DNA of 64,000 nucleotides from Patescibacteria group bacterium (GTDB taxonomy: Bacteria; Patescibacteriota; Patescibacteriia; Patescibacteriales; GWC2-42-12). A program made the translations under genes and the position numbers. Below the pieces are notes generated by a model that saw only the letters and a program-made list of their open reading frames with translations, was not told where the DNA came from and ran no database searches. This document shows, one piece after another, positions 3,316 through 61,128 of this stretch; the first letter of the stretch is position 1, and each line of letters starts with the position of its first letter. The stretch is taken from assembly GCA_041662965.1 (NCBI GenBank), contig JBAZRI010000005.1, positions 6,166-70,165 on the forward strand, read 5' to 3'.

Positions 3316-3348
3316 AAAACGCCCCGTATTCCTACGAGGCGTTTTTAT
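3316..3348 (-). terminator. Intrinsic terminator after the small CDS 3368..3547; identical 33-mer to 982..1014
   Basis: aaaacgccccgtattcctacgaggcgtttttat, 20 nt downstream of the stop at 3368 on the minus strand. Confidence 0.7.
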
Positions 3349-3367
3349 GGCCTAAATTTTTATATAG

Positions 3368-9392: not shown

Positions 9393-9574
9393 TCTAAATT
9401 AATTGTTATCGCGAGGAGAGCGGCGGTGCGACGCGGCAATCTGATTATTTGTCATCTCGACGACCGCAGGGAGGAGAGATCTATAATAGTCGGCTAGCTC
9501 GACTGTCAAGAATTATAGATTTCTCGCCTACGGCTCGAAATGACAAAACTACAGAGTCGCCCGCAATGACAAAT
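9385..9574. repeat. Cluster of GC-rich palindromic repeat modules (family 1 variants)
   Basis: gttatcgcgag...gcggcaatct; inverted pair gtcatctcga...atctataat / attatagat...tcgaaatgac around a central palindrome; gcccgcaatgac. Confidence 0.85.
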
Positions 9575-9578
9575 AGCC

Positions 9579-12350
9579 TTATTTTTCCTCAACGATTATG
9601 CCGATTATTTTATCCTGATTTAAATCTTCGGTGATTAACCAGCCGTCCGCGCCGCCGCCTAAATCAACCGGATATTTCCAGATTGGCGCGAAGCCGCCGC
9701 CTAATTTTAATTCGCTGGTTATGGTGGATGAATTCATGCCCGGCTGTTTTTGCACTAACAGCGAATATGAATATAAATTTTTCTGTTCCGGATTTAAAAC
9801 CGCGCCGGCCTTGGTGATAAGCTGATCCGCGAAATTATCTCCGGCCGGCTCCGGCTTAGCGGTTAATTTAAAAGGCAGTTTATATTTTATATTTATTTCA
9901 ACGGTTTCCCCCGGGTCAAGCTGGGACCAGTTGGCGAAGACGGTTTTATTGAATTCATTATAAATTTTCGTGCCGGTGGCTTCGTCCGTTCGCGCCTGGC
10001 TTTCGGCGGCGAAAACTTCGGGATCATTTTCCAGGCCGGCCATTTCTTTATCAAAAAATATTTTATCCACCGGCTTAAAGCCGCTAACTTCCAATAATTC
10101 CGAGCCGAGCGGCACGTAAACTCTTAGCCAATTAACGTTTCTCACTCCGGAAAAAGGCTCGCGCTTAATCGCTTCATGAACGCGCCTAATAGTTAAATTA
10201 TTAATAATTGACCCGTCCGGCTGAATTTCGCTTTGCTGGATAATTTCCTGCTTGATTTTACGGTCGCTTTTTCCGCCGGCGATGTTAGTATTGATAACAT
10301 TTAAATAATCGCCGGCCGTATCTTTAATCCGGCCGCTCCAGCCCAAGTCATCGGCTTTAGCCTGTAAAGCTTCATCCGTAAAATAAAATAAAATATTTTT
10401 GCCGGCGAGCGACTCTTCAATCGCCTTAAATAACGGCCCTAAATTATCCTTAGTCAGCCGCTTAGGCAATTCTTCAATAATTTTATTCATTAAATCACCG
10501 ATGATTTTTTTCGGCTCTCTGGTTACGTCCGGTTTTTGCTCGGCCAGTTTTTGCGTTTCCATAAAGAAATTATCCGCGCCGATAGTTAAGCCGTATTTTT
10601 CTTGCAAATCCACCGGGCCGATTATGGCTAACAATTTTTCCATCACGGTTGGCGTAAAGCTAATAACGCCGTCAACGGTTGAACCGTCGGAATTTTCATA
10701 AAACCAAGCGAGCTTTTCCGCGCTGGTCGGCCAATCCGGCCACCAATTCGCGTCCCAAAAATGCCAATCGGCCCTAACCAGACTTAAAGGCTCCGGCGCT
10801 TTTATTTTTTTTAAAAAACCGGCATCAGTATCGTAGCTGCCGCCGCCCGGAACTTCAATATTTTTTATCTCGCCTTTGGAAAAATCTATTAAAGCAAAAC
10901 TGCCGATAAAGCCGCCCGAAGCGCGCAGTTCCGAGTTATTTTGAAAGACTAATAGATAGCGCTTAGCCGCGCTGGCGCCTAAAAAATTTCCGAGGCTATC
11001 GGCTAAACTGATAAATTCTTTTAAGCCGCGGCTAAGCTGGCCGGCTTTTTGTTTTAATAAAATAAATTCTGTTTGGTAATTTTCCGGTATAACCTCGCTG
11101 TTTATCTGGTCTAAGGTTTTATTTAATTCGCTTAAATCGGTTATGGCGTTATTTCCGTAAAAACTTAAATTCTTTAAAATGTTATTAACGTTATCGGCCC
11201 GGTAGCTAAACAGGCTCTCCATAGCCAAGCTTAAATTTTTTCCCGCGGCCGCGCTTAGCTCGCCGGCGCGCAAAATATTTTTGCCGGCGGCGGCCAGGCG
11301 CATATTTTTATCAGGCAAAACCGAAGCTAAAGCGAAAAGCAAACCGTTGATTTCTTTTAGCTCGTTTTGCGCGCTTAAAAAATTATCGCCGGCGCTTTTA
11401 AAGCCTTGGCCGGCTTGGTTAAAATTAAAATTCGCGGCCGATTGCCCGGCGGAAATTAAATTGCCAATGGCGCTCTCGCTGGCGCCTAAAACCTTGCCGC
11501 GAACCACGTTGATAACTTTATAATAGGTAAAAGCTTTAACCGGTAAAATTATGATAAATAATATTCCGGCGAAAATTAAAACCGGCTTTAAGTAGCCAAC
11601 TAACCGCCTGTCATTGCGAGGAGCGATAGCGACGAAGCAATCTCTTTCTTCGCCAACAGATTTCTTTTCCGCCGCCGCGAGCGACCGCAGGGAGCGAAGC
11701 AATCTCGCGAAGATTGAAACAGCCGCTAGCTGCTTAGCCTGAAGGTCTTGAGGTATATTTTTAATAACTTTATTTACTGCCGGGTGAAATTTAATAAATA
11801 ACAGATAACCCGCTTTTTTAATCGGCTTAATTATGGCTAAAAGCAAAAAGTAAGCCAGCCTTAAAATAAAGACGATTGTCCAGCCGGCCGCGTAGCAAAT
11901 TTTATAAAGCAGCCAATAAACTTTTTTTAGAATAAAATACAGCGCCTTGCCTAAAACGATAAGCGCCAGCTGATTAGATAAAACAACCAAGTAACTGTCA
12001 TTGCGAGCGACCGCAGGGAGCGCGGCAATCTTATTCTTTCTCTTTTTGTCATTGCGAGCTGGCTTTTCCTTTGTCATTCCCGCGAAGGCGGGAATCCAGA
12101 AATTACGGCTGCGAACCATTAAGGCTATAATATTCTTTTTGGCATTTTCACTCCCCGCCTTTAGTATTCCCTTGTAATCCACTTCCGCCAATTTTTCCAG
12201 CTTTTCTTCAAGACGTCCGACGTCTCCAAGACGTCGGACGTCTTTTGCTTTGGTTTCTTCTTTAGGCAGATTCTGCTTTAAATCAATAACAAAACGGGAC
12301 GATTTCACATCCGGGTTAACTTTTAAATTATGGGGATTATTTAAAGCCAT
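9579..12350 (-). CDS. DUF4012 domain protein (paralog 1) with repeat-derived N-terminal extension
   Basis: LLVFQNNSELRASGGFIGSFALIDFSKGEI and WHFWDANWWPDWP parallel the second paralog at 30561..32555. The N-terminal ~250 aa carries in-frame repeat modules. Confidence 0.8.
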   Translation of the reverse strand: MALNNPHNLKVNPDVKSSRFVIDLKQNLPKEETKAKDVRRLGDVGRLEEKLEKLAEVDYKGILKAGSENAKKNIIALMVRSRNFWIPAFAGMTKEKPARNDKKRKNKIAALPAVARNDSYLVVLSNQLALIVLGKALYFILKKVYWLLYKICYAAGWTIVFILRLAYFLLLAIIKPIKKAGYLLFIKFHPAVNKVIKNIPQDLQAKQLAAVSIFARLLRSLRSLAAAEKKSVGEERDCFVAIAPRNDRRLVGYLKPVLIFAGILFIIILPVKAFTYYKVINVVRGKVLGASESAIGNLISAGQSAANFNFNQAGQGFKSAGDNFLSAQNELKEINGLLFALASVLPDKNMRLAAAGKNILRAGELSAAAGKNLSLAMESLFSYRADNVNNILKNLSFYGNNAITDLSELNKTLDQINSEVIPENYQTEFILLKQKAGQLSRGLKEFISLADSLGNFLGASAAKRYLLVFQNNSELRASGGFIGSFALIDFSKGEIKNIEVPGGGSYDTDAGFLKKIKAPEPLSLVRADWHFWDANWWPDWPTSAEKLAWFYENSDGSTVDGVISFTPTVMEKLLAIIGPVDLQEKYGLTIGADNFFMETQKLAEQKPDVTREPKKIIGDLMNKIIEELPKRLTKDNLGPLFKAIEESLAGKNILFYFTDEALQAKADDLGWSGRIKDTAGDYLNVINTNIAGGKSDRKIKQEIIQQSEIQPDGSIINNLTIRRVHEAIKREPFSGVRNVNWLRVYVPLGSELLEVSGFKPVDKIFFDKEMAGLENDPEVFAAESQARTDEATGTKIYNEFNKTVFANWSQLDPGETVEINIKYKLPFKLTAKPEPAGDNFADQLITKAGAVLNPEQKNLYSYSLLVQKQPGMNSSTITSELKLGGGFAPIWKYPVDLGGGADGWLITEDLNQDKIIGIIVEEK
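11610..11709. repeat. Family-1 modules inside the DUF4012 CDS
   Basis: gtcattgcgaggagcgatagcgacgaagcaatctc and gcgagcgaccgcagggagcgaagcaatctcgcg, read in frame as ...CFVAIAPRND... and ...LRSLRSLAAA... Confidence 0.9.
11997..12099. repeat. Family-1 modules inside the DUF4012 CDS
   Basis: gtcattgcgagcgaccgcagggagcgcggcaatct, gtcattgcgagc, gtcattcccgcgaaggcgggaatccag, read in frame as ...PAFAGMTKEKPARNDKK...AALPAVARND... Confidence 0.9.
12211..12243. repeat. Tandem 15-nt palindromes agacgtcSgacgtct (each with two GACGTC cores) inside the CDS
   Basis: agacgtccgacgtct (12211..12225) and agacgtcggacgtct (12229..12243). A third copy lies at 39251..39265. Confidence 0.9.
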
Positions 12351-24525: not shown

Positions 24526-24624
24526 TTTGGGCTAAATTTATAAAATTTTCGTGCGAGGACTGTTTGAGCCCAAGTAATCTTGGGTGAGTTCCGAGAGGAG
24601 AAAATTTTATAAATTTAGCCCAAA
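24526..24624. repeat. Rod-like hairpin element, family 2, copy 1
   Basis: Perfect 25-bp arms tttgggctaaatttataaaattttc / gaaaattttataaatttagcccaaa. Cores gtgcgaggactgtttgag and gagttccgagaggag. Apical hairpin cccaag-taat-cttggg. Confidence 0.9.
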
Positions 24625-25690: not shown

Positions 25691-27919
25691 TTACTTATTG
25701 ATTTTTATACTGCCTACGCTTACTCCGCCGCCGAAACTTTCTTCATAAGCATAAAACGAGCCAACGATTCTGCCATCAGCTTTAAAAACGCGGACATGAG
25801 GCGCTCCGCCCGGACCGGCGGCGGTTATAATTTCATCCAAGCCGTCATTATCTACGTCGGCTTTAGCTAAATTCACGCCGCCGCGGAAATTACTGTTAAA
25901 GGCGAAAAAATGCGATAATAAATTTCCTTTGCCGTCAAAAAATTTAATATGCGGCCCGCCGTTTTTTTCCGGCGCGGTAATAATATCCGCTCGATTGCCC
26001 CTTGAGCCGCTTCTAACGCTGGCGATCGTGACTTTAACGCCGCCGCGGAAAGTTTTAGGGTAGGCCAAAAATTGCCCTTGTAAAATGCCGCCGGCTTTAA
26101 AGATTCTAACTTCGGGAATTTTTCCGGCCGCCAAACCGGTCACTATTTCATCTTCGCCGTCGCCGTCTATGTCGCCGGTAGCGATATTAAGCCCGCCTTT
26201 AAACTTATTATCATAAGCGTAAAATGAGCCTAGCACCTGGCCGCGGCCGTTAAAAATTTTTATTTCCGAATTTCCGCCCGTAGCTTGCGCGGCGATAATT
26301 TCATCACTGCCGTCATTGTTAACGTCGGCAGCGGCAATGTTAACGCCGCCGCGGAAATTACTGTTAAAAGCAAAGAATTGGCCGATCGGCTCTCCTTTCA
26401 GGTTAAAAATCCTGATATGCGGCCCGCCGCCAAGCCCGGCCGCGGTAATAATTTCCTGTTGGCCGTCATGATTTATGTCCCCGGAAGCAAAATTAACGCC
26501 GCCTTTAAAATTATTGGCGTAGGCGTAAAACTCGCTATCTTTTTTGCCGTCTTGATCGGTAATTTTTATAAGGCTGGCCAGGCCGTTTTTCGGCCCAATC
26601 AGCAATTTTTCAATTTTATTATTTAACAGGCTCTGCGCGTAATTAACCGCGGCCGCGATATTCAGCCTGCCTTTGCCAAGCTGGCCTAAATATTTCGGAT
26701 TTAACCGACTGATATTATCCGTATTATCCAATAGCGTTTTTATAATCTGGTCTCGGTTTAAAGCCGGGTTAGCGCTGGCTATTAAAGCCAACGCGCCGCT
26801 TACCATGGGCACGGCGACCGAGGTACCGGACCAATAACCGTCATAATATTTATTAAACGGCTGGCCATTTAAGTAATTATCAGGCGAATAAACCACTGTG
26901 CTGAAAACACTGACCCCGGGCGCGGCAATATCAATGCATTTATTGCCAAAACTGGAAAAAGCCGCTTTCTGGTCTAAAGTATCGGTTGCGGCTACGCCGA
27001 TTACTCGGTTCTCGCCGTTAGCGCCATCAAGGCAAACCGGATACATGGGAGTTTGATCCAAATAATAGCCATCTCCCTGGCCGACTTCATTGCCTCCGGC
27101 AGCCACCACGATTATTCCGGCGTTATAAGCGCGTTTTATGGCGTCATCAAGGCCTTGGCTGTAGCCAAAGCCGACAAAACTTAGATTTATAATATTAGCG
27201 CCGTTGGCGACCGCGTAATCAACCGCCTTGATAACTTTAGAAGCGCTGCCTTCGCCTTTGTCATCCAAAACTTTAAGCGGCATAATTTTCGCTTTCCAGG
27301 TTATGCCGGCTATGCCGGCGGCGTTATTGCCGGAAGCCGCGGCTATACCGGCGATAATCGTGCCGTGCAATATTCCGTCTTCGCTAAAATCCGGCTTAAA
27401 CTTTGGCGACGGATCAGGCACATTATTGACAAAATCCCAGCCGTTAACATCATCAATAAAACCGTTTCTGTCATCATCAATATTGTTATCGGCGATTTCT
27501 TTTTTATTAAGCCAGATATTGCTTCTTAAATCGGGATGGCTGATTTGCACTCCTGAATCTAAAATGGCGATGACAATCTCGGGGCTTTCCCTTTTATTGT
27601 CCCAAGTTTCAATGGCTTTAACTTTTTGCAGATACCATTGATTATTGAAATAAGTATCAGACGGTATTATGGCGGCTTGATAAAGATAATTCGGCTCGGC
27701 ATATTCCACTTCCGGCAAACCGCTATAATAATTTAAAAAATTATTAAAATCGCCTGCTTGAGCAATTTTAATGGCTATCGGTTCGGTTGAAGCTTTAAAT
27801 TTCACCAATATTTCATCAGCGACAAAATTATTTTGGATAGCGCCAAAAGCATTATGGCCGGTGAATATAATCAGCCCAAATAAAAATATAATAAAAAAAG
27901 ATGTTATATTCTTTTTCAT
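25691..27919 (-). CDS. Secreted S8 (subtilisin-family) serine peptidase with C-terminal FG-GAP/VCBS-like repeats
   Basis: Catalytic triad contexts AILDSGV, HGTIIAG and SGTSVAVP. Repeated DxNxDGxxEII...GGPHIRIF units. Start moved to MKKNITSFF (signal peptide-like). Confidence 0.85.
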   Translation of the reverse strand: MKKNITSFFIIFLFGLIIFTGHNAFGAIQNNFVADEILVKFKASTEPIAIKIAQAGDFNNFLNYYSGLPEVEYAEPNYLYQAAIIPSDTYFNNQWYLQKVKAIETWDNKRESPEIVIAILDSGVQISHPDLRSNIWLNKKEIADNNIDDDRNGFIDDVNGWDFVNNVPDPSPKFKPDFSEDGILHGTIIAGIAAASGNNAAGIAGITWKAKIMPLKVLDDKGEGSASKVIKAVDYAVANGANIINLSFVGFGYSQGLDDAIKRAYNAGIIVVAAGGNEVGQGDGYYLDQTPMYPVCLDGANGENRVIGVAATDTLDQKAAFSSFGNKCIDIAAPGVSVFSTVVYSPDNYLNGQPFNKYYDGYWSGTSVAVPMVSGALALIASANPALNRDQIIKTLLDNTDNISRLNPKYLGQLGKGRLNIAAAVNYAQSLLNNKIEKLLIGPKNGLASLIKITDQDGKKDSEFYAYANNFKGGVNFASGDINHDGQQEIITAAGLGGGPHIRIFNLKGEPIGQFFAFNSNFRGGVNIAAADVNNDGSDEIIAAQATGGNSEIKIFNGRGQVLGSFYAYDNKFKGGLNIATGDIDGDGEDEIVTGLAAGKIPEVRIFKAGGILQGQFLAYPKTFRGGVKVTIASVRSGSRGNRADIITAPEKNGGPHIKFFDGKGNLLSHFFAFNSNFRGGVNLAKADVDNDGLDEIITAAGPGGAPHVRVFKADGRIVGSFYAYEESFGGGVSVGSIKINK

Positions 27920-27960
27920 AACATCTTTATTATAACATAAGTTGCCGGTATTTTTCAAAT

Positions 27961-29229
27961 CTAAATTTTTTCCAAAAGCGCCAATGTTTCCCGGGCGCAT
28001 TTAGCCAGGCTAAAGTCTTTTACTCTGATAAAACCGTTAGAGATTAATTGATCGGCCAATTCTCTGTCCAATAATATTTTCGCCATTTTTTGCGCCATAT
28101 CATCCTTATCCCCCGGGTTGAAAAGCAAAGCTGAATCTTTAACAACTTCCCTTATGGAAGCGATATTGGAAGCCGCGACCGGCGTGCCGCAAACCATGGC
28201 CTGGAGCAAAGGTATGCCAAACCCTTCATAGAGCGAAGGAAAAACAAATAAAGCGGCGCCGTTATAAATATAAGGCATATCGGCTTCCGGCACCCAGCCG
28301 GTCATAATTACGTTATCTTCAAGATCATATTCGTTTATGACATATTTAATTTCATCATAGCCGGAGTCGGCTCTGCCTACTAAAACCAACTTAGGCTTTA
28401 TCTGGCTGAATTTTTGCCTCATGATGGCATAAGCGCCGACCAGATTAGCGGTATTTTTCTTTTTTTCCAAGCGGCCGGCATAAAAAATATAAGGGGCTTT
28501 AATGTCATATTTATTTAAAACTTGTTTTATTTTTTCCGCGTCCTGAATCGGGCGATAAAGCGCGCCGTTAAAGCCGTTATAAACCACTTTAATTTTTTCC
28601 GCGTCAGCTTGATAAAATTCCACCATTTCTTTTTTAGTAAATTCAGACACCGCGATAATTGTTTTGGCGTGCTTGAGCGCGAATTTCGTTGACCAGCTAT
28701 GATAATCAATAACATTTGAATGAAACTTGCCTAAAGTAAACAACCTGACTAAAAAATTGAAAACTCCGGAAATTAAGCCGCTGGCCGGGCCGATTTTATC
28801 CGAACTGTAAAGTTTGGCCTGGCGCTCAAAACCTATGTCATGGATAGTAACGATTGATTTTTTCGGATGAATAACCGGCAGAGTGTGAGCCGGTATGAAA
28901 AGTACGTCTGCCCGATGCATTAACATTTCATAAGACAAGCGAATTTGCGTCCAAAAAAAAGTAAAAGGCCAGTTTAAAATTTTAACGCGGAAATTACAAT
29001 TTGGACTTTTAATTTCTTGCCAGCCGTAGCCGTCTATTTTACCCGGCTTAGCCGAATAATTTTCATCGGTTAAATCAGCTAAGCCGCCGGTTAAAGGCTT
29101 ATCACTATATAAAATATATTGATTTTTTGAATCAATTTTAGCCAGCTCTCTTATCAAATAATAAGAATACCACTCCGTACCGCCTTTAAATTTTCTATTC
29201 GCCCTTGAGGCGTCAATGCCGATAAGCAT
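27961..29229 (-). CDS. Glycosyltransferase family 4
   Basis: EGFGIPLLQAMVCGTPVAASN. Confidence 0.85.
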   Translation of the reverse strand: MLIGIDASRANRKFKGGTEWYSYYLIRELAKIDSKNQYILYSDKPLTGGLADLTDENYSAKPGKIDGYGWQEIKSPNCNFRVKILNWPFTFFWTQIRLSYEMLMHRADVLFIPAHTLPVIHPKKSIVTIHDIGFERQAKLYSSDKIGPASGLISGVFNFLVRLFTLGKFHSNVIDYHSWSTKFALKHAKTIIAVSEFTKKEMVEFYQADAEKIKVVYNGFNGALYRPIQDAEKIKQVLNKYDIKAPYIFYAGRLEKKKNTANLVGAYAIMRQKFSQIKPKLVLVGRADSGYDEIKYVINEYDLEDNVIMTGWVPEADMPYIYNGAALFVFPSLYEGFGIPLLQAMVCGTPVAASNIASIREVVKDSALLFNPGDKDDMAQKMAKILLDRELADQLISNGFIRVKDFSLAKCARETLALLEKI

Positions 29230-29245
29230 AAAAATTGTATATAAT

Positions 29246-29360
29246 ATTGGGCTAAATTTAGAAAATTTTCGTGCGAGGACTGCCTGCCTGCCGGCAGGCA
29301 GGTTTGAGGAGCTTTAAGCGACGAGTTCCGCAGTAGAAAATTTACTAAATTTAGCCCAAT
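29246..29360. repeat. Rod-like hairpin element, family 2, copy 2 (carries an extra inserted GC hairpin)
   Basis: attgggctaaatttagaaaattttc...gaaaatttactaaatttagcccaat. Core gtgcgaggactg followed by inserted cctgcctgccggcaggcagg, then tttgag...gagttccgcagtag. Confidence 0.9.
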
Positions 29361-30398: not shown

Positions 30399-30551
30399 GT
30401 CATTGCGAGAAGCCTGTAATCAGGCGACGAAGCAATCTCTTCCTTATTGTCATTCCCGCGAAAGCGGGAATCCAGGTTTAAACGCTATAAACAAGTTTCT
30501 GGATTGCGGGTCAAGCCCGCAATGACGAAGTAAATTTCGCTCGCAATGACA
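30399..30551. repeat. Repeat cluster: family-1 unit, composite B-spacer-C element, terminal aatgac
   Basis: gtcattgcgag-aagcctgtaatcagg-cgacgaagcaatctc; gtcattcccgcgaaagcgggaatccag (30449..30475), a 23-nt spacer, then ctggattgcgggtcaagcccgcaatgac (30499..30526). Confidence 0.9.
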
Positions 30552-35302: not shown

Positions 35303-35403
35303 ATTGGCTTTAGCTTTTGTAAAATTTTCGTGCGAGGACTGTTTGAGGCCGAGTAATCTCGGCCGAGTTCCGCAGTAGAAAATTTACAAAAACTAAAGCC
35401 AAT
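35303..35403. repeat. Rod-like hairpin element, family 2, copy 3
   Basis: Different but complementary arms attggctttagcttttgtaaaatttt / aaaatttacaaaaactaaagccaat. Same cores. Apical hairpin gccgag-taat-ctcggc. Confidence 0.9.
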
Positions 35404-40000: not shown

Positions 40001-40162
40001 GTCATTGCGAGGAGGAGCGTAGCGACGACGCGGCAATCTCACGAACAATTTTACAGAATATATCTTCATTGCAGAAACAATCTATAATTTTAATAAATAG
40101 TACGTGAGATTGCCTGCCTACCGGTAGGCAGGCTTCGCTCACTGCGTTGCGCTCGCAATGAC
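40001..40162. repeat. Inverted family-1 units with an embedded cctgcc...ggcagg hairpin
   Basis: gtcattgcgaggaggagcgtagcgacgacgcggcaatctcacg ... cgtgagattgcctgcctaccggtaggcaggcttcgctcactgcgttgcgctcgcaatgac. Confidence 0.9.
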
Positions 40163-42148: not shown

Positions 42149-42247
42149 CGTGTAAAGATGTTTGTTTTGAGCGCATACGAAATTGTAAAGATTTTTCTAA
42201 AAAATCGCCCAAATTTCGTCTAAGCGAAAAACAAACATCTTTACACG
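42149..42247. repeat. Rod-like hairpin element, family 3, copy 1 (between the ABC ATPase and permease genes)
   Basis: Perfect arms cgtgtaaagatgtttgtttt / aaaacaaacatctttacacg. Cores gagcgcatacgaaattgta and cccaaatttcgtctaagc. Confidence 0.9.
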
Positions 42248-49682: not shown

Positions 49683-52223
49683 TCATAATTTTTTCGCCCG
49701 ATTCATAATTTCCGCTTCTATTATATTCCGGTCCTGCCCGTATTTAAGCCGGGAGAGGGATTTAATTTTAGCCGTTAAATCTTCCCGCTTGATTCCGGGC
49801 AAAGGCCAAATCGTGGACATGGAGAATGGCCGTGTCGCCGTATTATCTACCAATAATTTAACATAAGCCGTGTATTTTTCAATATTGATTAAATCATACT
49901 GGTTAAAGACTGGCGCGAATTCTTTAGCCATGGTTTCCGCGTCTTCCGAGCCGATTTTAAATAGGAGCCAAGTGCCGACGTTGCCGAAAACCGCGTTCTT
50001 AATGGAAGTGTCTTGATTTTTTACCAGCTGGCCTAAATATTGGTGCGCGATTATTAAATTCAAGTTATATTTTCTGGCTTCGCTTAAGATGGAATTAACC
50101 GAATCGGTGGTAAAATTTTGGAATTCGTCAATGTATAAATAAAAATCCACTCTTTTTTCTTGCGGCTGGTCGGTGCGCGATAAAGCCGACATTAAAATTT
50201 TTCCGACCAGTATCATGCCTAAAAGATGGGCGTTCATCTCGCCGATTAGGCCTTTGGATAAATCCACTAGCAGGATTTTTTTTGTATCCATAACGTCGCG
50301 CAGATTAAACGAACTATTCTGCTGGGCGATTATCGGGCGCATGGTATCGTTGGAAATAAACGAAGTCAATTTTGAGGTAATATATGGCACGACATTAGCT
50401 AAAGCCGCTTCCCCGCCGGCTTTTTCCGCTTCTTTGCGCCAAAAATCAACCACGGTCGGGTCTTGGCATTTTTCCAATTTCATTTTCCTGAATTCCGGAT
50501 CGGCTAAAACTTTCGGAATTTCCATTAAAGTTGAACCGCTCCCTGGATCGCTCATAACCAGGAGCATGGCGTTTCGCATGTACTGCTCAAAAATCGGCCC
50601 GCCGGTAGCTTTCAGGTCGTATAATTTATCAAAAATCTTGATCATTTCATTAATGACAAAAGTTTTTTGCTCCGGATAGCGCGGGTCAAATTCCAATAAA
50701 TTTAAAGCTAGCGGCCGCTCGGTATCGGCCGGCGCGAATAAAATCACGTCATCAGCGCGCTCGGGCGGAATGCGGCTTATTATGTCATTAACTAAATCGC
50801 CGTGCGGATCAATCACGCAGACACCTTCGCCGTTAATGATATCTTGAATCGCCATGGAGGCGAGCAGAACCGATTTGCCCACGCCGGATTTACCGATGAC
50901 ATAAGTATGCCGGCGCCGGTCTTCGCGCTTCATTTTTATTTCCGTGGTTACGGAGCGATAAATATTTTTGCCTAAAATTATCCCCTCGCCCGGGATATTA
51001 GACGGCGCGGACGAATATTTGGCCATGAGCCAGCGGATATTCGGCGTTTCCGCACTGGCTAGAGGCGGATGATAAAGCGAGGCCAGCTCTTCGGTATTTA
51101 AAATAAAGCCTGCGCTTGGCTTAAAACGCCGGTAAATAAAATCTTTAACTAAAAATTTTTGGATGTAATTATTGTAAAAAGGGATTTTATTGGTAAAAAC
51201 ATTGCCGTACTGGTAATAATTATACTGACTGAAAACGCCGATCATATTATTTAAAAAAACTTTGGCGCGGATTGAATCTCGGGCGCTGGCCACCAGCCTG
51301 ATATTGACATCCAGCCCGGCCTTGGAATTTTTTTCTTCAATCAGCTTTAAAACTTCCTGCTCCATGGCGGTTAAGCGGTTTTCCTTTTCCGGCTTATTGG
51401 CTTGCGCGTTCGGCTTGGCGGCGTTGATTAAATCGCCGAAAAATGACAAAGCTTTAGAGAATAAGCCGGACGATAAAGCCTCGGATAATTTTTTACCCTG
51501 GTTGACCGCCGAAACCACCCGGTTGACTTTATTATGCCAGCCCGGGCGGGAGCTCCTGACGACGTATTGGATGGCCAGGCTTTCTTCTTCGCCCAGCTTT
51601 GACATGGCGTTAACCAAAGAATTTAAAGGGTCGGCCTCCATTTTATTGTAAGTTTTCAAAGGAAAAATAAAGCCGCGCTTAGGCTTGATAAAGCCGGCGA
51701 TGGTTCGTCCGCGAGGGCTGAAAATATTATAATCTTCCGCCTCTTCTAGGACCGCTTCCGGATAATAAGCCTGGATTTGCTGTTCAAGATAGCGGCCCAT
51801 AGCGCGGGGCGCGACAACGTAAAAAGAAATAAATTTATGGTCGGCTACGATTTCAAAGGAAAAATGGTCGTTCCGGCCGAGTAGCCAGGAAAAATTTTTA
51901 TGCCATTCTTGAGCTTTAAGGCCGCCGATGGCTTTAAAAATAGTTTCGCCCCTGGAAATTTCTTCGCGCAAATGCTGAAGATAATTCTGGGTATTTTGCT
52001 GCTCTTTTTCGTTGGGCTTTTCCTTGGGCACGCGTAAAAGATAAATTACGTGGTCATGGTATTTTGAATTTAAAGCCAGCCATAAAATAATTTTTCTGGC
52101 GATAAAAAACAAAATAACAAATAAAGCGGCCACTAATAAATAAACCAGCCAGCCGTCGATATTAACGCTTAAGCTCACGTCATTGATAATTTTAGTGTTT
52201 TGTCCGGATAGCCCGTAGTCCAT
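49683..52223 (-). CDS. Membrane-anchored P-loop NTPase, T4SS coupling protein (TraD/VirD4)/HerA-FtsK-like
   Basis: N-terminal TM. Walker A VIGKSGVGKSVLL. Walker B FYLYIDEFQNF. AHQYLGQL. Confidence 0.6.
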   Translation of the reverse strand: MDYGLSGQNTKIINDVSLSVNIDGWLVYLLVAALFVILFFIARKIILWLALNSKYHDHVIYLLRVPKEKPNEKEQQNTQNYLQHLREEISRGETIFKAIGGLKAQEWHKNFSWLLGRNDHFSFEIVADHKFISFYVVAPRAMGRYLEQQIQAYYPEAVLEEAEDYNIFSPRGRTIAGFIKPKRGFIFPLKTYNKMEADPLNSLVNAMSKLGEEESLAIQYVVRSSRPGWHNKVNRVVSAVNQGKKLSEALSSGLFSKALSFFGDLINAAKPNAQANKPEKENRLTAMEQEVLKLIEEKNSKAGLDVNIRLVASARDSIRAKVFLNNMIGVFSQYNYYQYGNVFTNKIPFYNNYIQKFLVKDFIYRRFKPSAGFILNTEELASLYHPPLASAETPNIRWLMAKYSSAPSNIPGEGIILGKNIYRSVTTEIKMKREDRRRHTYVIGKSGVGKSVLLASMAIQDIINGEGVCVIDPHGDLVNDIISRIPPERADDVILFAPADTERPLALNLLEFDPRYPEQKTFVINEMIKIFDKLYDLKATGGPIFEQYMRNAMLLVMSDPGSGSTLMEIPKVLADPEFRKMKLEKCQDPTVVDFWRKEAEKAGGEAALANVVPYITSKLTSFISNDTMRPIIAQQNSSFNLRDVMDTKKILLVDLSKGLIGEMNAHLLGMILVGKILMSALSRTDQPQEKRVDFYLYIDEFQNFTTDSVNSILSEARKYNLNLIIAHQYLGQLVKNQDTSIKNAVFGNVGTWLLFKIGSEDAETMAKEFAPVFNQYDLINIEKYTAYVKLLVDNTATRPFSMSTIWPLPGIKREDLTAKIKSLSRLKYGQDRNIIEAEIMNRAKKL

Positions 52224-55247: not shown

Positions 55248-55278
55248 CTATTTTATATTTTAATTCTAACGGGGTGAA

Positions 55279-55319
55279 TAAAAAATGCGCGCCGTTTCTG
55301 ATTAAGAAGCAGCGCGCGG
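55279..55319 (-). terminator. Intrinsic terminator
   Basis: Minus strand GCGCGCTG...CGGCGCGC followed by ATTTTTTATT. Confidence 0.7.
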
Positions 55320-55326
55320 TTGATAA

Positions 55327-55479
55327 TTACTCCTCATCCCCCTCTTCGTTTTCAGGGCGCGAGTGCCGTGCTTGGTTAAATGCTTCTACAAATGGGACGG
55401 TACAAACAGTAATTAAAAAAACTGCCGCAATATATTCCCAGATACCTGTTCTGCTTAAAAAATTCATAATTGCTTCCAT
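55327..55479 (-). CDS. 50-aa single-TM peptide, SD-led, immediately downstream of cysS
   Basis: MEAIMNFLSRTGIWEYIAAVFLITVCTVPFVEAFNQARHSRPENEEGDEE*. AGGAGG starts 3 nt after the cysS stop. Confidence 0.5.
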   Translation of the reverse strand: MEAIMNFLSRTGIWEYIAAVFLITVCTVPFVEAFNQARHSRPENEEGDEE

Positions 55480-55493
55480 GAGCACTCCTCCTT

Positions 55494-56933
55494 TTATTTT
55501 TTCGTAATTCTTTGTCCGTTTTTAGTATCTTCAATATTATAGCCTAATTTTTCAATTTGCCAGCGCAGTTTATCCGATTCTTCAAAATTTTTATCTTGCC
55601 TGGCTTTTTCTCTGGCTCTGATTATTTTCTCAATTTCAACCGGAACTTTTTCTTCTTTTAACGCGCCGGCCAAGCCCAACCCTAAAACTTTATCAAAATC
55701 TAAAATCGTCGCTAATTTTTCCTCGTCTTTAATCTCTGACTTTAAAACTTCTTGGATTATAGCTAGCGCTTGCGGCGTATTTAAATCATCGTTAATCGCC
55801 CGCGAAAACTTTTCTTTAAAATTAGAATTTATACTTGCTACTTTATACTTTATACTTTTAACTTTTAACTCTTTTAGCTGATTATATAAATGTTTTAATC
55901 CTTCCGTTGCCGCCCCTAGCGCCTCCCAGCTAAAATTCATTACTTTGCCATAGCCGGTTTGTAAACATAAAAATCTAAAGGCTAAAGGGCTGATTTTCTT
56001 TTCTGCCAAATCTTTAAGCGTATAAAAATTATTAAACCGTTTGCTCATCTTTTTTCCATCCACTAACAAATATTCATTATGCAGCCAATAATTTACCGGC
56101 CTTTTGCATTTATATCCGATGACGCTTTGGTGTATTTCATTTTCATGATGAGGAAATTTTAAATCAACGCCGCCGGTGTGAATGTCAAAAGGCATGCCTA
56201 ACTCGGCCTGGCCCATGGCCGAGCATTCAATATGCCAGCCGGGCCGACCGGGTAATTTTTGCCCGTCAAGCTCAAACTGCCATGACGGCTCCCCTTGTTT
56301 TTGCCCTTTCCATAAAACAAAATCTTGAACATTGTCTTTTTCATATTCATCGCTGTCTATCCTAGCGCCTGATTTTAATTTTGAGACGTCAATATCAACT
56401 AATAAGCCGTATTTGTGTTTCTGGCTGTATTTAACTACGTCAAAATAAACCGAACCGTCTTTTATGTAAGCTAAGCCGGATTTAAAAATTTTCGCGACTA
56501 ACTCCTGCATTTTTTCAATATATTCAGTCGCTCGAGTTATTTTAATCTGCTGTTTTTCAATATTTAATTTTTCCAAATCCTGCCAAAAATAATTTTCAAA
56601 TTCAGCCGTAAATTTTTTTAAAGCTTGCATCGGGGGCATGTCCGGATATTTTATTTTTGAATCCCTGATGGTTTTATCGTCAACGTCGGTAATATTCATA
56701 ACCCATTTAACTTTTTTTTCGCCAAAATTATATTTTAAAACTCTATTTAAAATATCGGCAAAAACATAAGCCCTTAAATTGCCGACATGGGCGTAATTAT
56801 AAACCGTGGGCCCGCAAGTATATAATCCGACTGCCCCCTGTCCTTTATAAGGAGAGGGTCGGGGTGAGGTTTTAATCGGCTTGAATTCCTCTCTTTTGCG
56901 GCTAAGCGTATTGTATAAAAATAGTTTATTCAT
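55494..56933 (-). CDS. cysS: Cysteine--tRNA ligase
   Basis: YTCGPTVYNYAHVGNLR (HIGH-type), KMSKRF (KMSKS). Carries a ~10-aa repeat-derived insertion after FKPI. Confidence 0.95.
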   Translation of the reverse strand: MNKLFLYNTLSRKREEFKPIKTSPRPSPYKGQGAVGLYTCGPTVYNYAHVGNLRAYVFADILNRVLKYNFGEKKVKWVMNITDVDDKTIRDSKIKYPDMPPMQALKKFTAEFENYFWQDLEKLNIEKQQIKITRATEYIEKMQELVAKIFKSGLAYIKDGSVYFDVVKYSQKHKYGLLVDIDVSKLKSGARIDSDEYEKDNVQDFVLWKGQKQGEPSWQFELDGQKLPGRPGWHIECSAMGQAELGMPFDIHTGGVDLKFPHHENEIHQSVIGYKCKRPVNYWLHNEYLLVDGKKMSKRFNNFYTLKDLAEKKISPLAFRFLCLQTGYGKVMNFSWEALGAATEGLKHLYNQLKELKVKSIKYKVASINSNFKEKFSRAINDDLNTPQALAIIQEVLKSEIKDEEKLATILDFDKVLGLGLAGALKEEKVPVEIEKIIRAREKARQDKNFEESDKLRWQIEKLGYNIEDTKNGQRITKK

Positions 56934-57102: not shown

Positions 57103-57561
57103 TTATTTTTCAATATACTCCACATTCGTAACTTCATTATACTCCGGTATTTTTGCCTCGGGCACGGAGTGGACTTTAAAGGTTGCTAACTCCTCTGCCC
57201 TTTTTAGTAAAAAATTCGGTAAAAACCCGACATATATCGGACTGTTCGGATCTTTATCATATACCGACAAGATACTTGGCTCATCGGCGCCTTTTAAATA
57301 ATATGCTCGATCAAATTTATAAGTTGTTCCCGGCTTTAATTCATTGAAGGGCACCAATTTGCCAAATTTATTATTTTGGCTAATTAATATCCCTGCTATA
57401 AAAGCCCCGGCCGCCGCACAGATGGTTGGAAAAAAAATTAAGAAGGGATTAATAGTTTCTGATGCCGAATTAACTAAAATTGACATCAATACTATACCAA
57501 TAGCCATAAGAATCGGAACTGCTAAACATAATATCTTTACCCCACCGGATAATTTTATCAT
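57103..57561 (-). CDS. Hypothetical membrane protein (2 TM plus soluble domain), SD-led
   Basis: 152 aa. GGAGG 5 nt upstream of the ATG. Confidence 0.6.
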   Translation of the reverse strand: MIKLSGGVKILCLAVPILMAIGIVLMSILVNSASETINPFLIFFPTICAAAGAFIAGILISQNNKFGKLVPFNELKPGTTYKFDRAYYLKGADEPSILSVYDKDPNSPIYVGFLPNFLLKRAEELATFKVHSVPEAKIPEYNEVTNVEYIEK

Positions 57562-57708
57562 TCTTTCCTCCTTTTTTGCCTTATCGGCGTTTTTATGTTT
57601 ATAATAGCTTGTTATTTAAAAAGACCGCGCATTACTTTTCACAATTTCGCCCGCAGTTAGTATTACGTACGGGCAAAAAGTAAAAATTAATATGTTGTTA
57701 TATTATTG

Positions 57709-57849
57709 ATTGGGCTAAATTTATGAAATTTTCGTGAGATTACTGCAGTTAGGCTTGGAAAAATTGTTTTTATCGCGCATACGAAATTGTAGCGACCGCA
57801 GGGAGCCCAAATTTCGTCTAAGCAAAAAAAACAATTTTTCCAAGCCTAA
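57709..57849. repeat. Nested repeats: degenerate family-2 left half, then a full family-3 element with a family-1 module at its apex
   Basis: attgggctaaatttatgaaattttcgtgagattactgcag, then ttaggcttggaaaaattgttttt...gcgcatacgaaattgta-gcgaccgcagggagc-ccaaatttcgtctaagc...aaaaacaatttttccaagcctaa. Confidence 0.9.
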
Positions 57850-57894
57850 CGTATAACTACAATATTATTTCAATTTTCCTACCGCTTATTTTTG

Positions 57895-57957
57895 TATCCC
57901 CGCCTCCTCAGTGAAATATGCTCTGCATTTCACGGGGCTAGCCGCGGGGATGACAAA
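57895..57957. repeat. Nested GC hairpin ending in ggggatgac
   Basis: atccccgc...gtgaaat-atgctctgc-atttcac...gcggggatgac. Confidence 0.75.
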
Positions 57958-57966
57958 AAATATATA

Positions 57967-60900
57967 TTACAAATACTTCTCCGGATCTACGCTCGCGCCA
58001 TTTAGCAATACTTCAAAATGCAGATGCGCTCCGTTGGTATATGGTCCGGCGCCGGGCGTACCCGGCTTGCCGCCCGATAAGCCGATAATACCGCGCTGTT
58101 TAACCTGGTCGCCGACTTTAACGTCAAGGTGCGATAAATGGGCGTATCTGGTTATTAGGCCGTTGCCGTGGCTGATGGCGATATAACTCGCCTGATCGCT
58201 TGAGCCGTCGACAACTTCAATGACCGTGCCGGCGCCGGCCGCCTTGACCGAAGTGCCTTGGGATACGGCTATGTCTATGCCCGTATGTTCGCCGACAGAA
58301 TCTTTATAAGGATAATTAGTGTCATGCCAGCCGTAAGTTATGGCGCCGCTAACCGGCTTAATAAACGTTTTCGCCGTACCATTATTAGGCTGGCCGTTAT
58401 CTTCGCTGGCGCCGGTAGCGATGGTGAATTTATAGCTGTCAGTCGGGTCGCCGTTGATAAGCGCGCTGACTTTTGAAGATTTGCCTCGCGCCTTAAAATC
58501 GCTGAAATAAATATCCATATTTTTATCGGCGATTAATTCGCTGGTTTTAACATGGACATCAAAGACGGCTTCTTCTCCGGCCTTAACTACAAAGCCGCCT
58601 AAGCTGATTTTATTGGCGCCGGCTACCGGCCGGGTAATCGTACTGCCGGCGGTTTTTTGCTTATCGCGATTAATTACTTTTAAATTGCTGTAGCCTAAGC
58701 TATAGGTTAATTCCCGGTCAGCCGAATTAATGGTAATTGACTCTAACTTTAAATCTTCAATGCCTGAATTTTTAACTTTAAAGCCGGCGACGACATTGTC
58801 ATTTTCGCCCTTGGTTACGAAGCCTTCGGTAACTTTGGTAATCTCCGCCGAGGCCGGGCCGAAAGCGGTCTTATGGCTGTTAACATTTAAATTATTAACC
58901 ACAGCCGGTATTAAAGAATTATTGTTAACCGCGGCTAAATTGCTGATCGCCAACTGGACTTCCGAAGCTTTAAGGTCGGTTTCCGTATCGGCGTAAACTT
59001 TTATTTCCGCTCTGGCGCCTGACTTTAAAATATATTTAAAGCCGGCGGCGGTTAAGTCATTTGAATAAGGATTTTTAATCTCTTTAATTTTGGTTGAACC
59101 GATATAAAACTTTAAATTGCTGAAGCCGTTGTCAAAAGAAATCACGCCCGAGCTAGCGCCGCCGCGGGCAAAAGTCAAATCGGTTATTTTAGTATCGCCG
59201 CCGGCCGCGCCCTCTACGATAAAGCTGGCGATCTTAATATTTTTTTGCCCCTTGATAAAAGCCTGATCGCCTAAGTCATTATTAGGATAAAGATAAAGGC
59301 TGGATTTACTGATCATTAATTTAGCGCCGGCGATATTAACCGTATCGGAGAAGGAAGCGCCGCTCCCAATGCTATAATCAAGGCTGTTTAAAATTATTTT
59401 GTAATAGCCGCCGTTGGACACGCTCTCCGGCACCTTAGTGACTAAAGCAACAACTAAATTTTGCTTGGCCGCTAAATTCAGTTCGCCTAAATCAACGCTA
59501 GCTTTGCCGTTATTAAATTCATCGCCGTCAAAATTATCATAAACTTCGCCGCTATTATAATTAACCAAGTAGATAACCCCGGTTAAATTAGGCGAGGCGC
59601 TATTTTTTTCCAAACTAAAAGTCAAGCGATTTAAGCTTATTTTTTGGTTATTATTCCTGATTTCAAAATTGCCGATAATTACGCCGGTCTGCTTGGTGAA
59701 AACTTTATTATTGGCCTTTAGCTCTTTGGCCGTAACGCCGACCGCTTCCCTTTTAATGGTTATATTTTCTTCAAGATTGGCTATACTGACATACAAGCTA
59801 TAGTTTCCCTGGGAGCTTAAAACTTTAGCTTCTTTAAGATAAAGATTGATCAGCTTGCCGTCGCCGCCGATAACATCGGCGGAAACGGTGAAAGTTTCAT
59901 CGCCGCCTTTTTTGATTTTATAATTGTTTAATTTAAAAACTATTTCCTTATCGCCAGCCGCTTCGGAAACGGTAGAAATAATTTGGCCGGCTTTATTTTT
60001 TAACTTGAAGTTATTTAAACTGGGCACGATAACCTTGCTCTGATTGGAAAATTTTAATTCTTTGACGAAAACATCGGATCGGCTGGAAGTTTCAGCTAAA
60101 TTGAATTTACCGATATTTTTTTCCGTTGAGCCGATAATCGCCTGATTATTATTAATGCCTAAAGACTGCTCGCTAACGGCAACGCTTTCTAAAACTCCGA
60201 CTCCGGAGATAAGCTTAAAGGTTTCTCCGGCTAAAGGAAAGGCGCCTAAAGCTTTGGCGCCAGTAATACTCGCGGCCTGGCTGATAACGACCGAGAAGGC
60301 CTGATTAGCAACCTCGGCCGAGTTATCGTTAAAATCTACATAAACTTTTAATTTTTTGGTTTCACCCGAATTAATAACCATCGGCTTATTCGTAAAATTA
60401 AAAATCGCCTGCCTGCCATGCAACCTAAAATAAGCCGGATATTCAATATCGCTTTCATCGGTTAAATAAAATTTTTTGATTACTTCTTGATTAAAAAAGC
60501 CTTTTAAATCTAAAACCAAATTTGTAATTTCCACCTGTCGGCCGTCAGCTTTTAAATTAAAAACAGCCGTTAAATTATCTTGCGTGCCAATAGCCAAATA
60601 ATCAGGCCCCGGACTGGAAGCGTCTAAAGCAACCGACAGCGGATTATCGCTATAATCTCCGATTGCGCCGGCGGCTTTGAAGTCGGCCGTATCATATTCG
60701 GCTAAGTCGGCCTGGGCGATTGTTACGATGTCCGGCCATTTAAAGCCTGAATCAATAAACTGCTGGGCCGATTCAATTACGGCTTTCCGGCCGTTAGCAA
60801 TATAATAAACGGCTTTATCGTTACCGGCTTTAACCAGTTTAACTTCCGGCCATTTATTTAATTCCGCCTGGCTGATAACTTTAATATCGCTCCATTTATT

Positions 60901-61128
60901 GCCATAAGCTAAAAAGGCCTTAGCGCTTACATAAGATTTTTTAACTCCGCGCGCGTGATCTAAATAATATACCGTTGGATTATCGGCAGTTTTAACCTGT
61001 TTAATTTCAGAATTGACGCCATAAGCCGCCCCGGCGATTTGCGCGTTAATAGCTAAACAACCGATAATAACAGTAATAATTACGGCAAAAATGAATAATT
61101 TTTTAGCTAATATTAAAGTATTAAACAT
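57967..61128 (-). CDS. Large secreted protein with C-terminal M23 (LytM-type) metallopeptidase domain
   Basis: HTGIDIA...GTVIEV...RYAHLSHLDVKVGDQV...GAHLHFEV. N-terminal signal/TM segment. Confidence 0.85.
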   Translation of the reverse strand: MFNTLILAKKLFIFAVIITVIIGCLAINAQIAGAAYGVNSEIKQVKTADNPTVYYLDHARGVKKSYVSAKAFLAYGNKWSDIKVISQAELNKWPEVKLVKAGNDKAVYYIANGRKAVIESAQQFIDSGFKWPDIVTIAQADLAEYDTADFKAAGAIGDYSDNPLSVALDASSPGPDYLAIGTQDNLTAVFNLKADGRQVEITNLVLDLKGFFNQEVIKKFYLTDESDIEYPAYFRLHGRQAIFNFTNKPMVINSGETKKLKVYVDFNDNSAEVANQAFSVVISQAASITGAKALGAFPLAGETFKLISGVGVLESVAVSEQSLGINNNQAIIGSTEKNIGKFNLAETSSRSDVFVKELKFSNQSKVIVPSLNNFKLKNKAGQIISTVSEAAGDKEIVFKLNNYKIKKGGDETFTVSADVIGGDGKLINLYLKEAKVLSSQGNYSLYVSIANLEENITIKREAVGVTAKELKANNKVFTKQTGVIIGNFEIRNNNQKISLNRLTFSLEKNSASPNLTGVIYLVNYNSGEVYDNFDGDEFNNGKASVDLGELNLAAKQNLVVALVTKVPESVSNGGYYKIILNSLDYSIGSGASFSDTVNIAGAKLMISKSSLYLYPNNDLGDQAFIKGQKNIKIASFIVEGAAGGDTKITDLTFARGGASSGVISFDNGFSNLKFYIGSTKIKEIKNPYSNDLTAAGFKYILKSGARAEIKVYADTETDLKASEVQLAISNLAAVNNNSLIPAVVNNLNVNSHKTAFGPASAEITKVTEGFVTKGENDNVVAGFKVKNSGIEDLKLESITINSADRELTYSLGYSNLKVINRDKQKTAGSTITRPVAGANKISLGGFVVKAGEEAVFDVHVKTSELIADKNMDIYFSDFKARGKSSKVSALINGDPTDSYKFTIATGASEDNGQPNNGTAKTFIKPVSGAITYGWHDTNYPYKDSVGEHTGIDIAVSQGTSVKAAGAGTVIEVVDGSSDQASYIAISHGNGLITRYAHLSHLDVKVGDQVKQRGIIGLSGGKPGTPGAGPYTNGAHLHFEVLLNGASVDPEKYL

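Follow-up and report, generated by a model that had tools for sequence, protein, structure and literature searches.

The 405-nt spacer that follows an M23-peptidase gene in a genome of the Patescibacteria (Parcubacteria) is a hot spot at which small non-coding hairpin elements accumulate. It lies in the window that we analyzed, a 64-kb piece of the chromosome of an uncultured bacterium of this group, with a G+C content of ~40%, a GC skew that is negative throughout, and genes nearly all on the minus strand. Three different hairpin-forming repeats share the spacer, all from undescribed families that are present in many related genomes: half of a family-2 element (F2), a complete family-3 element (F3), and an element of a fourth kind (X'). 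On balance, we consider F2 and F3 to be dispersing DNA hairpin elements, similar to repetitive extragenic palindromes (REPs) and MITEs (miniature inverted-repeat transposable elements), that would spread in a structure-dependent manner through a mobilizing activity. The spacer is organized as follows.

57562-57966: spacer under study, 405 nt, with the stop codon of the M23-peptidase gene on one side and the start of a 152-aa open reading frame (ORF) on the other
57967-61128, minus strand: M23-peptidase gene, bounding the spacer
57103-57561, minus strand: orphan 152-aa ORF, followed by cysS
57709-57745, plus strand: truncated F2 element, made up of the left outer arm ATTGGGCTAAATTTATGAAATTTT plus the left core in decayed form, CGTGAGATTACTG (consensus CGTGCGAGGACTG)
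57748-57850, plus strand: complete F3 element of subfamily A, outer stem 57748-57771 / 57827-57850
57775-57791, plus strand: left core of the F3 element, GCGCATACGAAATTGTA
57792-57806, plus strand: apex mini-hairpin of the F3 element, the 'G module' GCGACC-GCA-GGGAGC, GCGACCGCAGGGAGC
57807-57823, plus strand: right core of the F3 element, CCAAATTTCGTCTAAGC
57889-57958: element X', stem GTATCCCCGC/GCGGGGATGAC, related to GTCATTCCCGCG-AAA-GCGGGAATCCAG elements

The arms of the F3 element are 41 nt long and 88% complementary, with the outer 24 nt pairing perfectly and an inner stem formed by ACGAAATT/AATTTCGT. Folded as single strands, the two strands reach -32.7 and -33.3 kcal/mol (z = -9.7 and -8.7), and a covariance model of the family scores 57748-57850 at 111 bits (E 2.7e-24). 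The F2 half is identical to complete F2 copies at 26/27 positions (against 24527-24553) and at 26/28 (against 29246-29273). It stops at a recurrent ...ACTG^ junction, pairs with nothing in the fold of the locus, and goes undetected by the F2 covariance model at E<=0.1; beyond the F3 element, we found no remnant of an F2 right half in the window. An earlier note on this DNA had described an F2 left half at 57709 followed directly by a complete F3 element, and this arrangement is borne out, with a 2-nt spacer between the two. The note's reading of the locus as a nest of three levels is not: the 37-nt F2 half and F3 abut, and only the apex module lies inside another element. The locus, then, is not a three-deep nest built in place, while the general idea that hairpin modules come to lie at unpaired positions holds. 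A truly nested element, which the note overlooked, is X' at 57889-57958. Here, a 40-nt insert (57904-57943) with a hairpin of its own, GTGAAAT...ATTTCAC, replaces the loop that reads GAAA in its relatives. The canonical form of X is found in the related genome L093, at the same position after the M23 stop codon, and at 30449 and 12073 in the window.

To delineate the F3 family, we scanned one genome per species and then the Joint Genome Institute (JGI) metagenomes with a pattern that left everything free except the 8-bp inner stem and three or four bases beside it. The scan returned 14 stretches from the species genomes and 74 from the metagenomes, which represent 63 distinct sequences, 58 of them clearly homologous. 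All but one of the genome matches come from Parcubacteria/Patescibacteria or from metagenome-assembled genomes (MAGs) of unclassified bacteria, and a single MAG, GW2011_GWC2_42_12, holds at least five copies; in viral contigs, neither the F3 nor the F2 pattern found a match. The contig L011 (CAZLKB010000003.1, 266 kb), labelled 'uncultured Gammaproteobacteria', contains an F3 copy together with an F2-variant copy at 43% G+C, like the Parcubacteria loci, and is either a mis-assigned contig or a case of cross-phylum transfer. Several parts that lie outside the scan pattern show little or no variation, namely the left-hand GCGCAT, the right-hand C(N)TAAGC, and the stretches of T and of A where the outer stem begins at its base. 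F3 is an element of ~100 nt with an invariant asymmetric core and a ~24-bp outer stem, whose arms are recognizably homologous and fall into two subfamilies, A and B. The window contains two F3 copies, the second of which fills the spacer between an ABC ATPase and an ABC-2 permease gene.

42149-42247, plus strand: second F3 copy in the window, subfamily B, with an AT-rich apex hairpin (covariance model 94 bits)

The left arms of F3 copies are just 48% identical to one another, and each copy retains on average 23.7 Watson-Crick pairs (in total, 1254 Watson-Crick pairs, 33 G·T, 18 A·C, and 51 other mismatches). Two-sided changes maintain 15 of 29 pairs in one RNAalifold run and 13 of 22 in another, and in L092 even the inner stem has changed from ACGAAATT/AATTTCGT to ATAAAATT/AATTTTAT, with compensation. 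The outer stem is interrupted in 0/53 copies, a count in which detection was independent of stem intactness. Because the mismatches are not dominated by G·T, they fit arms that were born complementary and then decayed, rather than a wobble tolerance of the RNA type. F3 copies fill gene spacers, seven of them convergent and none divergent. Their orientation relative to transcription is 16 against 7 (p ~0.09), in genomes in which the directions of transcription and replication are confounded. In one pair of copies, L022 59-107 and L002 6814-6862, the right arm and right flank are identical, whereas the left arms and left flanks differ; L022 is a 1.2-kb contig with the element 59 nt from its end, such that the pair may stem from contigs joined at the repeat during assembly or from genuine recombination between copies.

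F2 has an analogous build of ~100 nt, in which a ~24-bp variable outer stem encloses the invariant core TTCGTGCGAGGACTGTTTGAG, a variable hairpin, and CGAGTTCCGCAGTAGAAAA. The covariance model identified 18 distinct copies in ~685 kb searched, and the window holds 3.5 copies: the half copy in the spacer and three complete ones.

24526-24624, plus strand: F2 copy 1, complete, between the GT2 and epimerase genes
29246-29360, plus strand: F2 copy 2, complete, with a 20-nt palindrome CCTGCCTGCCGGCAGGCAGG at 29283-29302, between GGACTG and TTTGAG
35303-35403, plus strand: F2 copy 3, complete, with outer arms unlike those of copies 1 and 2 in sequence and still complementary

In the outer helix of F2, 14 of 18 pairs show double changes and 96.5% of the cells are paired, values that 0/500 shuffles reach and that no slid register comes close to. 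The core helices never covary because they never change. The ends of the element are merely loosely alike among copies (TTGGGCT...AGCCCAA). All 16 copies that lie between co-directional genes are oriented the same way round (two-sided binomial p ~3e-5), and the two copies between divergent genes each abut the 5' end of the gene that shares their orientation. Between the end of the element and the start codon that follows, there are usually 8-30 nt. Within the core, GGACTG^ is a junction in three independent contexts: the palindrome insertion of copy 2, the F2/F3 boundary at 57745, and the point at which a variant F2 subfamily (L005, L006, and L011) diverges. We also observed that the left core of F2 and family-1 units (for example, 24548-24581 and 11608-11644) have TGCGAGGA in common and ~62% identity over 37 nt, with the F2 loop AGTAATCT facing AGCAATCT in this comparison. 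The resemblance suggests that F2 and family 1 have a common evolutionary origin and are not independent.

Orthologous sites differ in whether they contain an element. The spacer between the GT2 and epimerase genes, which holds an F2 copy in the window (24526-24624), is ~22 nt long and lacks the element in L045, where the two orthologues are 69% and 76% identical at the amino acid level; the F2 copy of L045 sits one gene further along, where the window has none. The M23-cysS spacer is equally variable. In the window, it carries X', F3, and half of F2; in L090, none of the repeat families; in L092, an F3 copy in the same place and orientation as in the window, with a long AT apex, and possibly a relic of an F2 terminus, though the F2 model gives no detection; and in L093, an X-type hairpin directly after the stop codon together with other hairpin sequence. 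Copies have also reached unrelated loci: the rare composite F3 elements of L068 and L076 are 93% identical, and their flanks are without detectable homology. Other F3 pairs are 88-91% identical and have no homology in their flanks long enough to test. In support of dispersal, truncated and composite copies pile up at the 3' flanks of genes.

The composition of the apices shows that modules cross between families. The six pairs of the G module (G-C, C-G, G·A, A·G, C-G, and C-G) are closed by a GNA triloop, and variants in other copies have C, A, or T at the loop position N or a T-A in place of the sixth C-G pair, changed on both sides. The earlier note had recognized the F3 apex as a module of family-1 units, and we confirmed this at three sites.

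11681-11695 and 12007-12021, plus strand: G module in family-1 units, identical to that of the F3 apex
9460-9474, plus strand: G module in a family-1 unit, 13/15 positions identical

The four G-module matches in the window, all on the plus strand, compare with 0.10 expected by chance. Across the F3 family, the apex is either this 15-nt module or an AT-rich hairpin of 18-42 nt with varying, covarying sequence; in L068 and L076, furthermore, a GC hairpin replaces the CTAAGC loop. The 57 classifiable F3 copies are distributed as follows.

Subfamily A: G apex 24 copies, hairpin apex 11 copies
Subfamily B: G apex 2 copies, hairpin apex 20 copies

Since the G apex is the usual state of subfamily A (24/35 copies, from many metagenomes), the copy in the spacer most likely inherited its apex and did not receive it by a fresh local insertion. 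Arm subfamily and apex type are discordant in 13/57 copies, indicating that apices were exchanged between lineages more than once.

Family 1 provides a further set of hosts for such modules. Its unit is a hairpin of ~35-45 nt, GTCATTGCGAG-[slot]-GAAGCAATCTC, and units pair as inverted doublets. The slot can hold GAGC-NNNN-GCGAC, the G module, a GC hairpin, or a short palindrome of the CCTGCC type. A 20-nt CCTGCC...GGCAGG palindrome occurs within all three families, F1, F2, and F3: in the internal loop of F2 at 29283, in the left internal loop of the F3 copy L013, and in an arm of a family-1 doublet. In F2 copy 2, it is a clean 20-nt insertion relative to the copies at 24526 and 35303, which agrees with the earlier claim of a hairpin inside the core of this copy (29283-29302).

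40113-40132: CCTGCC palindrome in the right arm of a family-1 doublet (GAGATTG^CTTCG), with identical context in L050
22127-22146 and 54108-54128: free-standing CCTGCC palindromes
30399-30550: family-1 inverted doublet enclosing an X-type inverted doublet, a true nested composite

The same palindrome-plus-host context recurs in different genomes, and composites therefore propagate as such. As a side observation, family-1 units, G modules, and an X element lie at 11600-12100, within the 5' part of a 923-aa ORF (9579-12350). The sole Pfam domain of this ORF is DUF4012, from residue 462 onward, so that translation either truly begins further downstream or the repeats were absorbed in frame.

The nested inserts and the uninterrupted F3 stems together indicate that unpaired positions are where other hairpins end up. 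The earlier note had proposed hairpin apices as the insertion target, or else modular assembly. The part of this proposal that stands is that modules occupy or replace unpaired positions and cross families. A caveat concerns the apices: the insertion points are mostly internal loops or helix-loop junctions instead, and the doublet hairpin of family 1 has its insert within a stretch that forms pairs. Both loop targeting and selection against insertions that break stems fit the distribution.

How might such elements spread? Conserved termini were not found among 55 F3 copies, whose outermost 8 nt differ from copy to copy; the 10-nt flanks of these copies contain no direct repeats that could be target-site duplications, and the 20-nt palindrome inserts are clean as well. 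The lack of fixed terminal inverted repeats and of target-site duplications points to a structure-specific, probably single-strand (hairpin) mechanism. We propose that the hairpin elements form a guild of related, undescribed repeat families in Parcubacteria that would spread into gene spacers as DNA, with the activity supplied either in trans by an enzyme or by replication template switching. The apex may serve as a slot for different mini-hairpins, and composites would arise where another small hairpin inserts at, or replaces, unpaired positions in a hairpin already present, because such positions either tolerate or attract it. For the spacer downstream of the M23-peptidase gene, a plausible history is that all of an F2 copy past the GGACTG junction was lost and the rest decayed, that a complete subfamily-A F3 copy with the usual G-type apex came to sit 2 nt from the remaining half, and that the neighboring X-type hairpin gained its 40-nt loop insert.

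Several observations weigh against dispersal as mobile DNA. No transposase, HUH/Y1, RAYT, or IS200-type gene was present among 50 ORFs of the window scanned with Pfam, and a scan for Y1-like motifs combined with tblastn over 691 kb around the elements gave no match, with a query and motifs of our own choosing. The search for a RAYT- or IS200-type gene that the earlier note had suggested was thus negative within 64 kb of this genome and the 691 kb around elements. No gene family recurs beside F3; the sole apparent cluster consists of spurious ORFs that read through the element. Copies at orthologous loci are better conserved than the neighboring proteins, up to the identical elements of L004 and L054, next to a flank with 77% amino acid identity, and such conservation would equally suit a function for the host. 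The copies of a single genome, LCCP01 (L002, L005, L006, L007, and L009), have strongly diverged arms, and each is nearly perfectly paired; they give no sign of a recent burst, and each looks individually maintained. Taken together, the conservation of orthologues and the pairing of old copies imply that the elements are maintained, be it by selection or by a mechanism that preserves palindrome symmetry. Lastly, the strict orientation of F2 (16/16 copies between co-directional genes) is not required of a purely selfish DNA element.

These observations lend weight to a reading in which F2, and possibly F3, is a cis-acting structured RNA within polycistronic mRNAs, which we regard as possible though rather unlikely. 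It might bind a protein, mark a processing site, stabilize the mRNA, or cleave itself. The variable stem would then be an ordinary P1 helix, the invariant internal loops the functional core, and the apex a neutral expansion segment, with clustering and nesting as by-products of hairpin growth and recombination. The orientation of F2, including the divergent cases that abut the 5' end of a like-oriented gene, its end 8-30 nt before the next start codon, the invariance of the unpaired core nucleotides across genomes with CysS identities of only 60-75%, and the conservation of orthologous-locus elements above neighboring proteins are all as expected of an RNA. So are the covarying variable stems and the compensated double change in the inner stem of the L092 F3 copy. 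Covariation supports the outer helices, whereas the core helices are invariant and uninformative except in L092, and a DNA hairpin would look alike.

By contrast, F3 is found either way round relative to transcription (16 against 7, p ~0.09), and the strand on which the motifs fold best is not that of the mRNA. Antisense to the flanking genes, the invariant G·T of the F2 core (GGACT/AGTTC) and the G module, with its tandem G·A and GNA loop, give good folds; read as mRNA, the F2 core G·T and the G-module G·A turn into A·C and C·U mismatches. In antisense-oriented F3 copies, read on their own plus strand, G·T exceeds A·C (13 against 7), the opposite of what folding on the mRNA strand predicts. 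Overall, G·T against A·C counts are 33 against 18 in F3 and 13 against 6 in F2, a bias that is weak for strand assignment and does not follow transcription, and wobble pairs are not enriched among the stem mismatches. The neighboring genes have no function in common. Rfam offers no ribozyme or RNA family for these elements: with Rfam 15 at the gathering threshold, the window yields only tRNA-Gln, and even at E<=10 the F2/F3 loci yield only generic long-hairpin (miRNA-precursor) matches far below the thresholds. Moreover, presence and absence at orthologous sites and near-identical copies at unrelated loci would still need dispersal. Rather unlikely, in our estimate, is the broader proposal that F2, perhaps with F3, represents either a new Parcubacteria-specific structured element with a functional core (for example, a self-processing or protein-recruiting RNA located between cistrons) or the substrate of a novel, structure-specific single-strand DNA mobilization system that inserts hairpins into the loops of others and leaves neither terminal repeats nor target duplications.

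Template switching without any dedicated enzyme is, in our view, improbable as the full explanation. Quasi-palindrome correction through template switching is an established mutational mechanism. Together with ectopic gene conversion, it could allow quasi-palindromes to evolve and swap parts, such that the arms stay complementary, apices are exchanged, and a hairpin is now and then copied into the loop of another. The near-perfect complementarity of arms in spite of the divergence between copies, a mismatch spectrum like that of random decay, the discordance of arm and apex types in 13/57 copies, and identical 15-mer or 20-mer modules in different families would all follow from such a process, as would the lack of target-site duplications and fixed termini and the failure to find a transposase. 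The L022 copy, with the right arm of L002 and a different left arm, would fit such a process, but with only 59 nt between the element and the end of its contig, the copy may have been created by the assembly. What this process hardly explains is the appearance of whole elements at new, unrelated loci, and it leaves the invariance of the asymmetric unpaired core without a cause.

That the juxtaposition in the spacer is an assembly chimera, the alternative raised in the earlier note, or a chance resemblance is very unlikely: although such repeats do break and mis-join metagenome assemblies, and F3 lies at a contig end in L003 and L022, the gene order M23 peptidase / spacer / cysS / dus is retained in three related genomes (L090, L092, and L093), and all sequence matches at the locus are far beyond chance. 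In addition, three contigs on record carry the 152-aa protein of the locus, their similar places being collapsed into the one shown. A homologue search with this protein, aimed at close strains, found none, leaving it an orphan, and the closest CysS relatives, at 70-74% identity, include other Patescibacteria MAGs.

Returning to dispersing DNA hairpins as our favored reading of F2 and F3, the closest functional analogy would be with REPs and REPINs. REPs are short imperfect palindromes with a conserved 5' GTAG that are recognized by RAYT, a Y1/HUH protein whose gene is usually flanked by the repeats. Like F2 and F3, REP/REPIN elements are multi-copy, extragenic, ~100 nt in size, and able to form long hairpins, and neither group has target-site duplications. 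REPINs form long hairpins in single-stranded DNA or mRNA, and compensatory changes on both sides of the hairpin are common (Bertels & Rainey 2011, PMC3116915). F3 has GTAG directly 5' of the apex hairpin and F2 has CAGTAG; in F3, GTAG precedes the apex hairpin in most copies and the G after GTA is at least 90% conserved, although a 4-mer within an invariant core is a lead only. Family-1 units resemble REPINs in forming inverted doublets, whereas F2 and F3 do not. REPINs have conserved ends and a variable middle, and F2 and F3 show the reverse, an invariant middle and variable ends. Further differences from REPs are that short palindromes are missing within the individual arms of F2 and F3, that copy density is modest (2 F3 and 3.5 F2 copies in 64 kb), and that no RAYT gene was found in the window or in the 691 kb around elements.

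Other repeat systems resemble the hairpin families in part. The bacterial interspersed mosaic elements (BIMEs) of E. coli and the BOX elements of pneumococci are mosaic repeats with modules arranged in series. They likewise combine few modules in varied combinations and numbers, in transcribed spacers and at gene 3' ends, but in our families one module may also occupy the hairpin of another, and every family is distinguished by an invariant asymmetric core. The SDR repeats of Nostoc and related cyanobacteria, which Elhai and colleagues are said to have described in 2008, are reportedly 21-27 nt long and sit, with no duplication of the target, inside members of larger repeat families. In F1, F2, and F3, the 20-nt CCTGCC...GGCAGG palindrome does likewise; it differs from SDR in phylum and sequence, in being a perfect palindrome, and in that insert and host context recur together across genomes. 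With MITEs (Correia/NEMIS and RUP) and ERIC/IRU, our elements have in common that they are non-coding, ~100-150 bp long, hairpin-forming, located in spacers, and co-transcribed with their neighbors, that they are present or absent between relatives, and that truncated and nested copies occur. Hairpin elements of sponge and fungal mitochondria repeatedly invade intergenic regions with no known enzyme (PMC2800124); these belong to organelle genomes, have unrelated sequences, and are not known to possess a conserved asymmetric core.

Some assignments were considered and rejected. A classical, DDE-derived MITE is ruled out, as the conserved terminal inverted repeats and target-site duplications that mark such elements are absent. 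Integron attC sites carry R''/R' core sites (RYYYAAC ... GTTRRRY) at their ends and stand in cassette arrays beside an integrase. The ends of the F3 copy in the spacer, GTTAGGC/GCCTAAC, resemble an attC site by coincidence, since the ends of other F3 copies are unrelated; moreover, the elements lie between housekeeping genes and the window has no integrase. A terminator scan found no intrinsic terminator (a GC-rich stem with a T run behind it) in 57562-57966, nor was a promoter carried by the elements found there; the terminator that the scan does give on the gene strand comes after the 152-aa ORF, at 57085-57054. Likenesses to ribozyme or tetraloop-receptor motifs (CUAAG/GCAU in F3 and ACAGUCC in F2) were considered, had no supporting match, and were dropped. 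The searchable literature contained nothing relevant on F2 or F3 sequences or on such repeats in Patescibacteria.

The surroundings of the spacer and other parts of the window show further features. A conserved leader (window 57625-57700, minus strand; L090 9570-9680; L093 9455-9530) precedes, on the upstream side, a small ORF that is not conserved. The leader reads approximately TTAATTTTTAYYYTYTRCYCAT...GGGCA..GTGRAAAGTAA in consensus, with the hairpin TGCCCGTACG...CGGGCA in the window, and the downstream ORF has a strong AGGAGG ribosome-binding site. The leader is common to the three genomes and the ORFs behind it are unrelated (152 aa in the window, shorter in the others). After the 152-aa ORF follow the terminator-like hairpin at 57085-57054 and a promoter-like TTGCCT-17-TAGAAT (57048-57020), both on the minus strand. 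This promoter-like sequence upstream of cysS is kept in L092 and L093, where a family-1 inverted doublet separates it from the start codon of cysS; in the window, another hairpin, rich in GC, takes that place. Beyond cysS, small stand-alone GIY-YIG nuclease genes occur in L090 (11507-11821, 104 aa) and L092 (11581-11814, 77 aa), and the matching position in the window (~55250-55500) holds just a 50-aa called gene. The GIY-YIG genes are a possible candidate for a repeat-linked nuclease. A VirD4/TraG-like coupling-protein gene (49683-52223; DUF8128 in relatives) is conserved in synteny in L092 and L093, which suggests that it belongs to the chromosomal core and not to a mobile element. Elsewhere in the window, three near-identical bidirectional terminator-like hairpins (AAAAAACGCCCCGT...ACGGGGCGTTTTT) at 975-1020, 2102-2147, and 3309-3354 sit between HEPN, Fic/DOC, and HTH-Fic genes. 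The direct repeats at 25700-26900, with periods of 153, 306, and 468 nt, lie within a subtilase / FG-GAP repeat protein gene (25691-28000); they are coding and have no relation to the hairpin families.

Parcubacteria and other bacteria of the candidate phyla radiation have genomes that are very small and tightly packed, and one would not expect several families of 100-nt non-coding hairpins to persist in them. Two of these families are now well defined, F3 with 58 and F2 with 18 distinct copies, each with an invariant core and a searchable covariance model. In practice, the repeats give rise to ORFs that are spurious, and metagenome assemblies of these organisms break or are mis-joined at them. 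If the elements are mobile, they would offer a tractable case of hairpin-into-hairpin insertion and module exchange that proceeds without a recognizable transposase. If F2 acts as an RNA, it would be a widespread, unannotated element located just upstream of many genes. Should either hold, whether as an RNA class or as a substrate for mobilization, a phylum with minimal genomes would have provided a new class of RNA or a new kind of mobile element.

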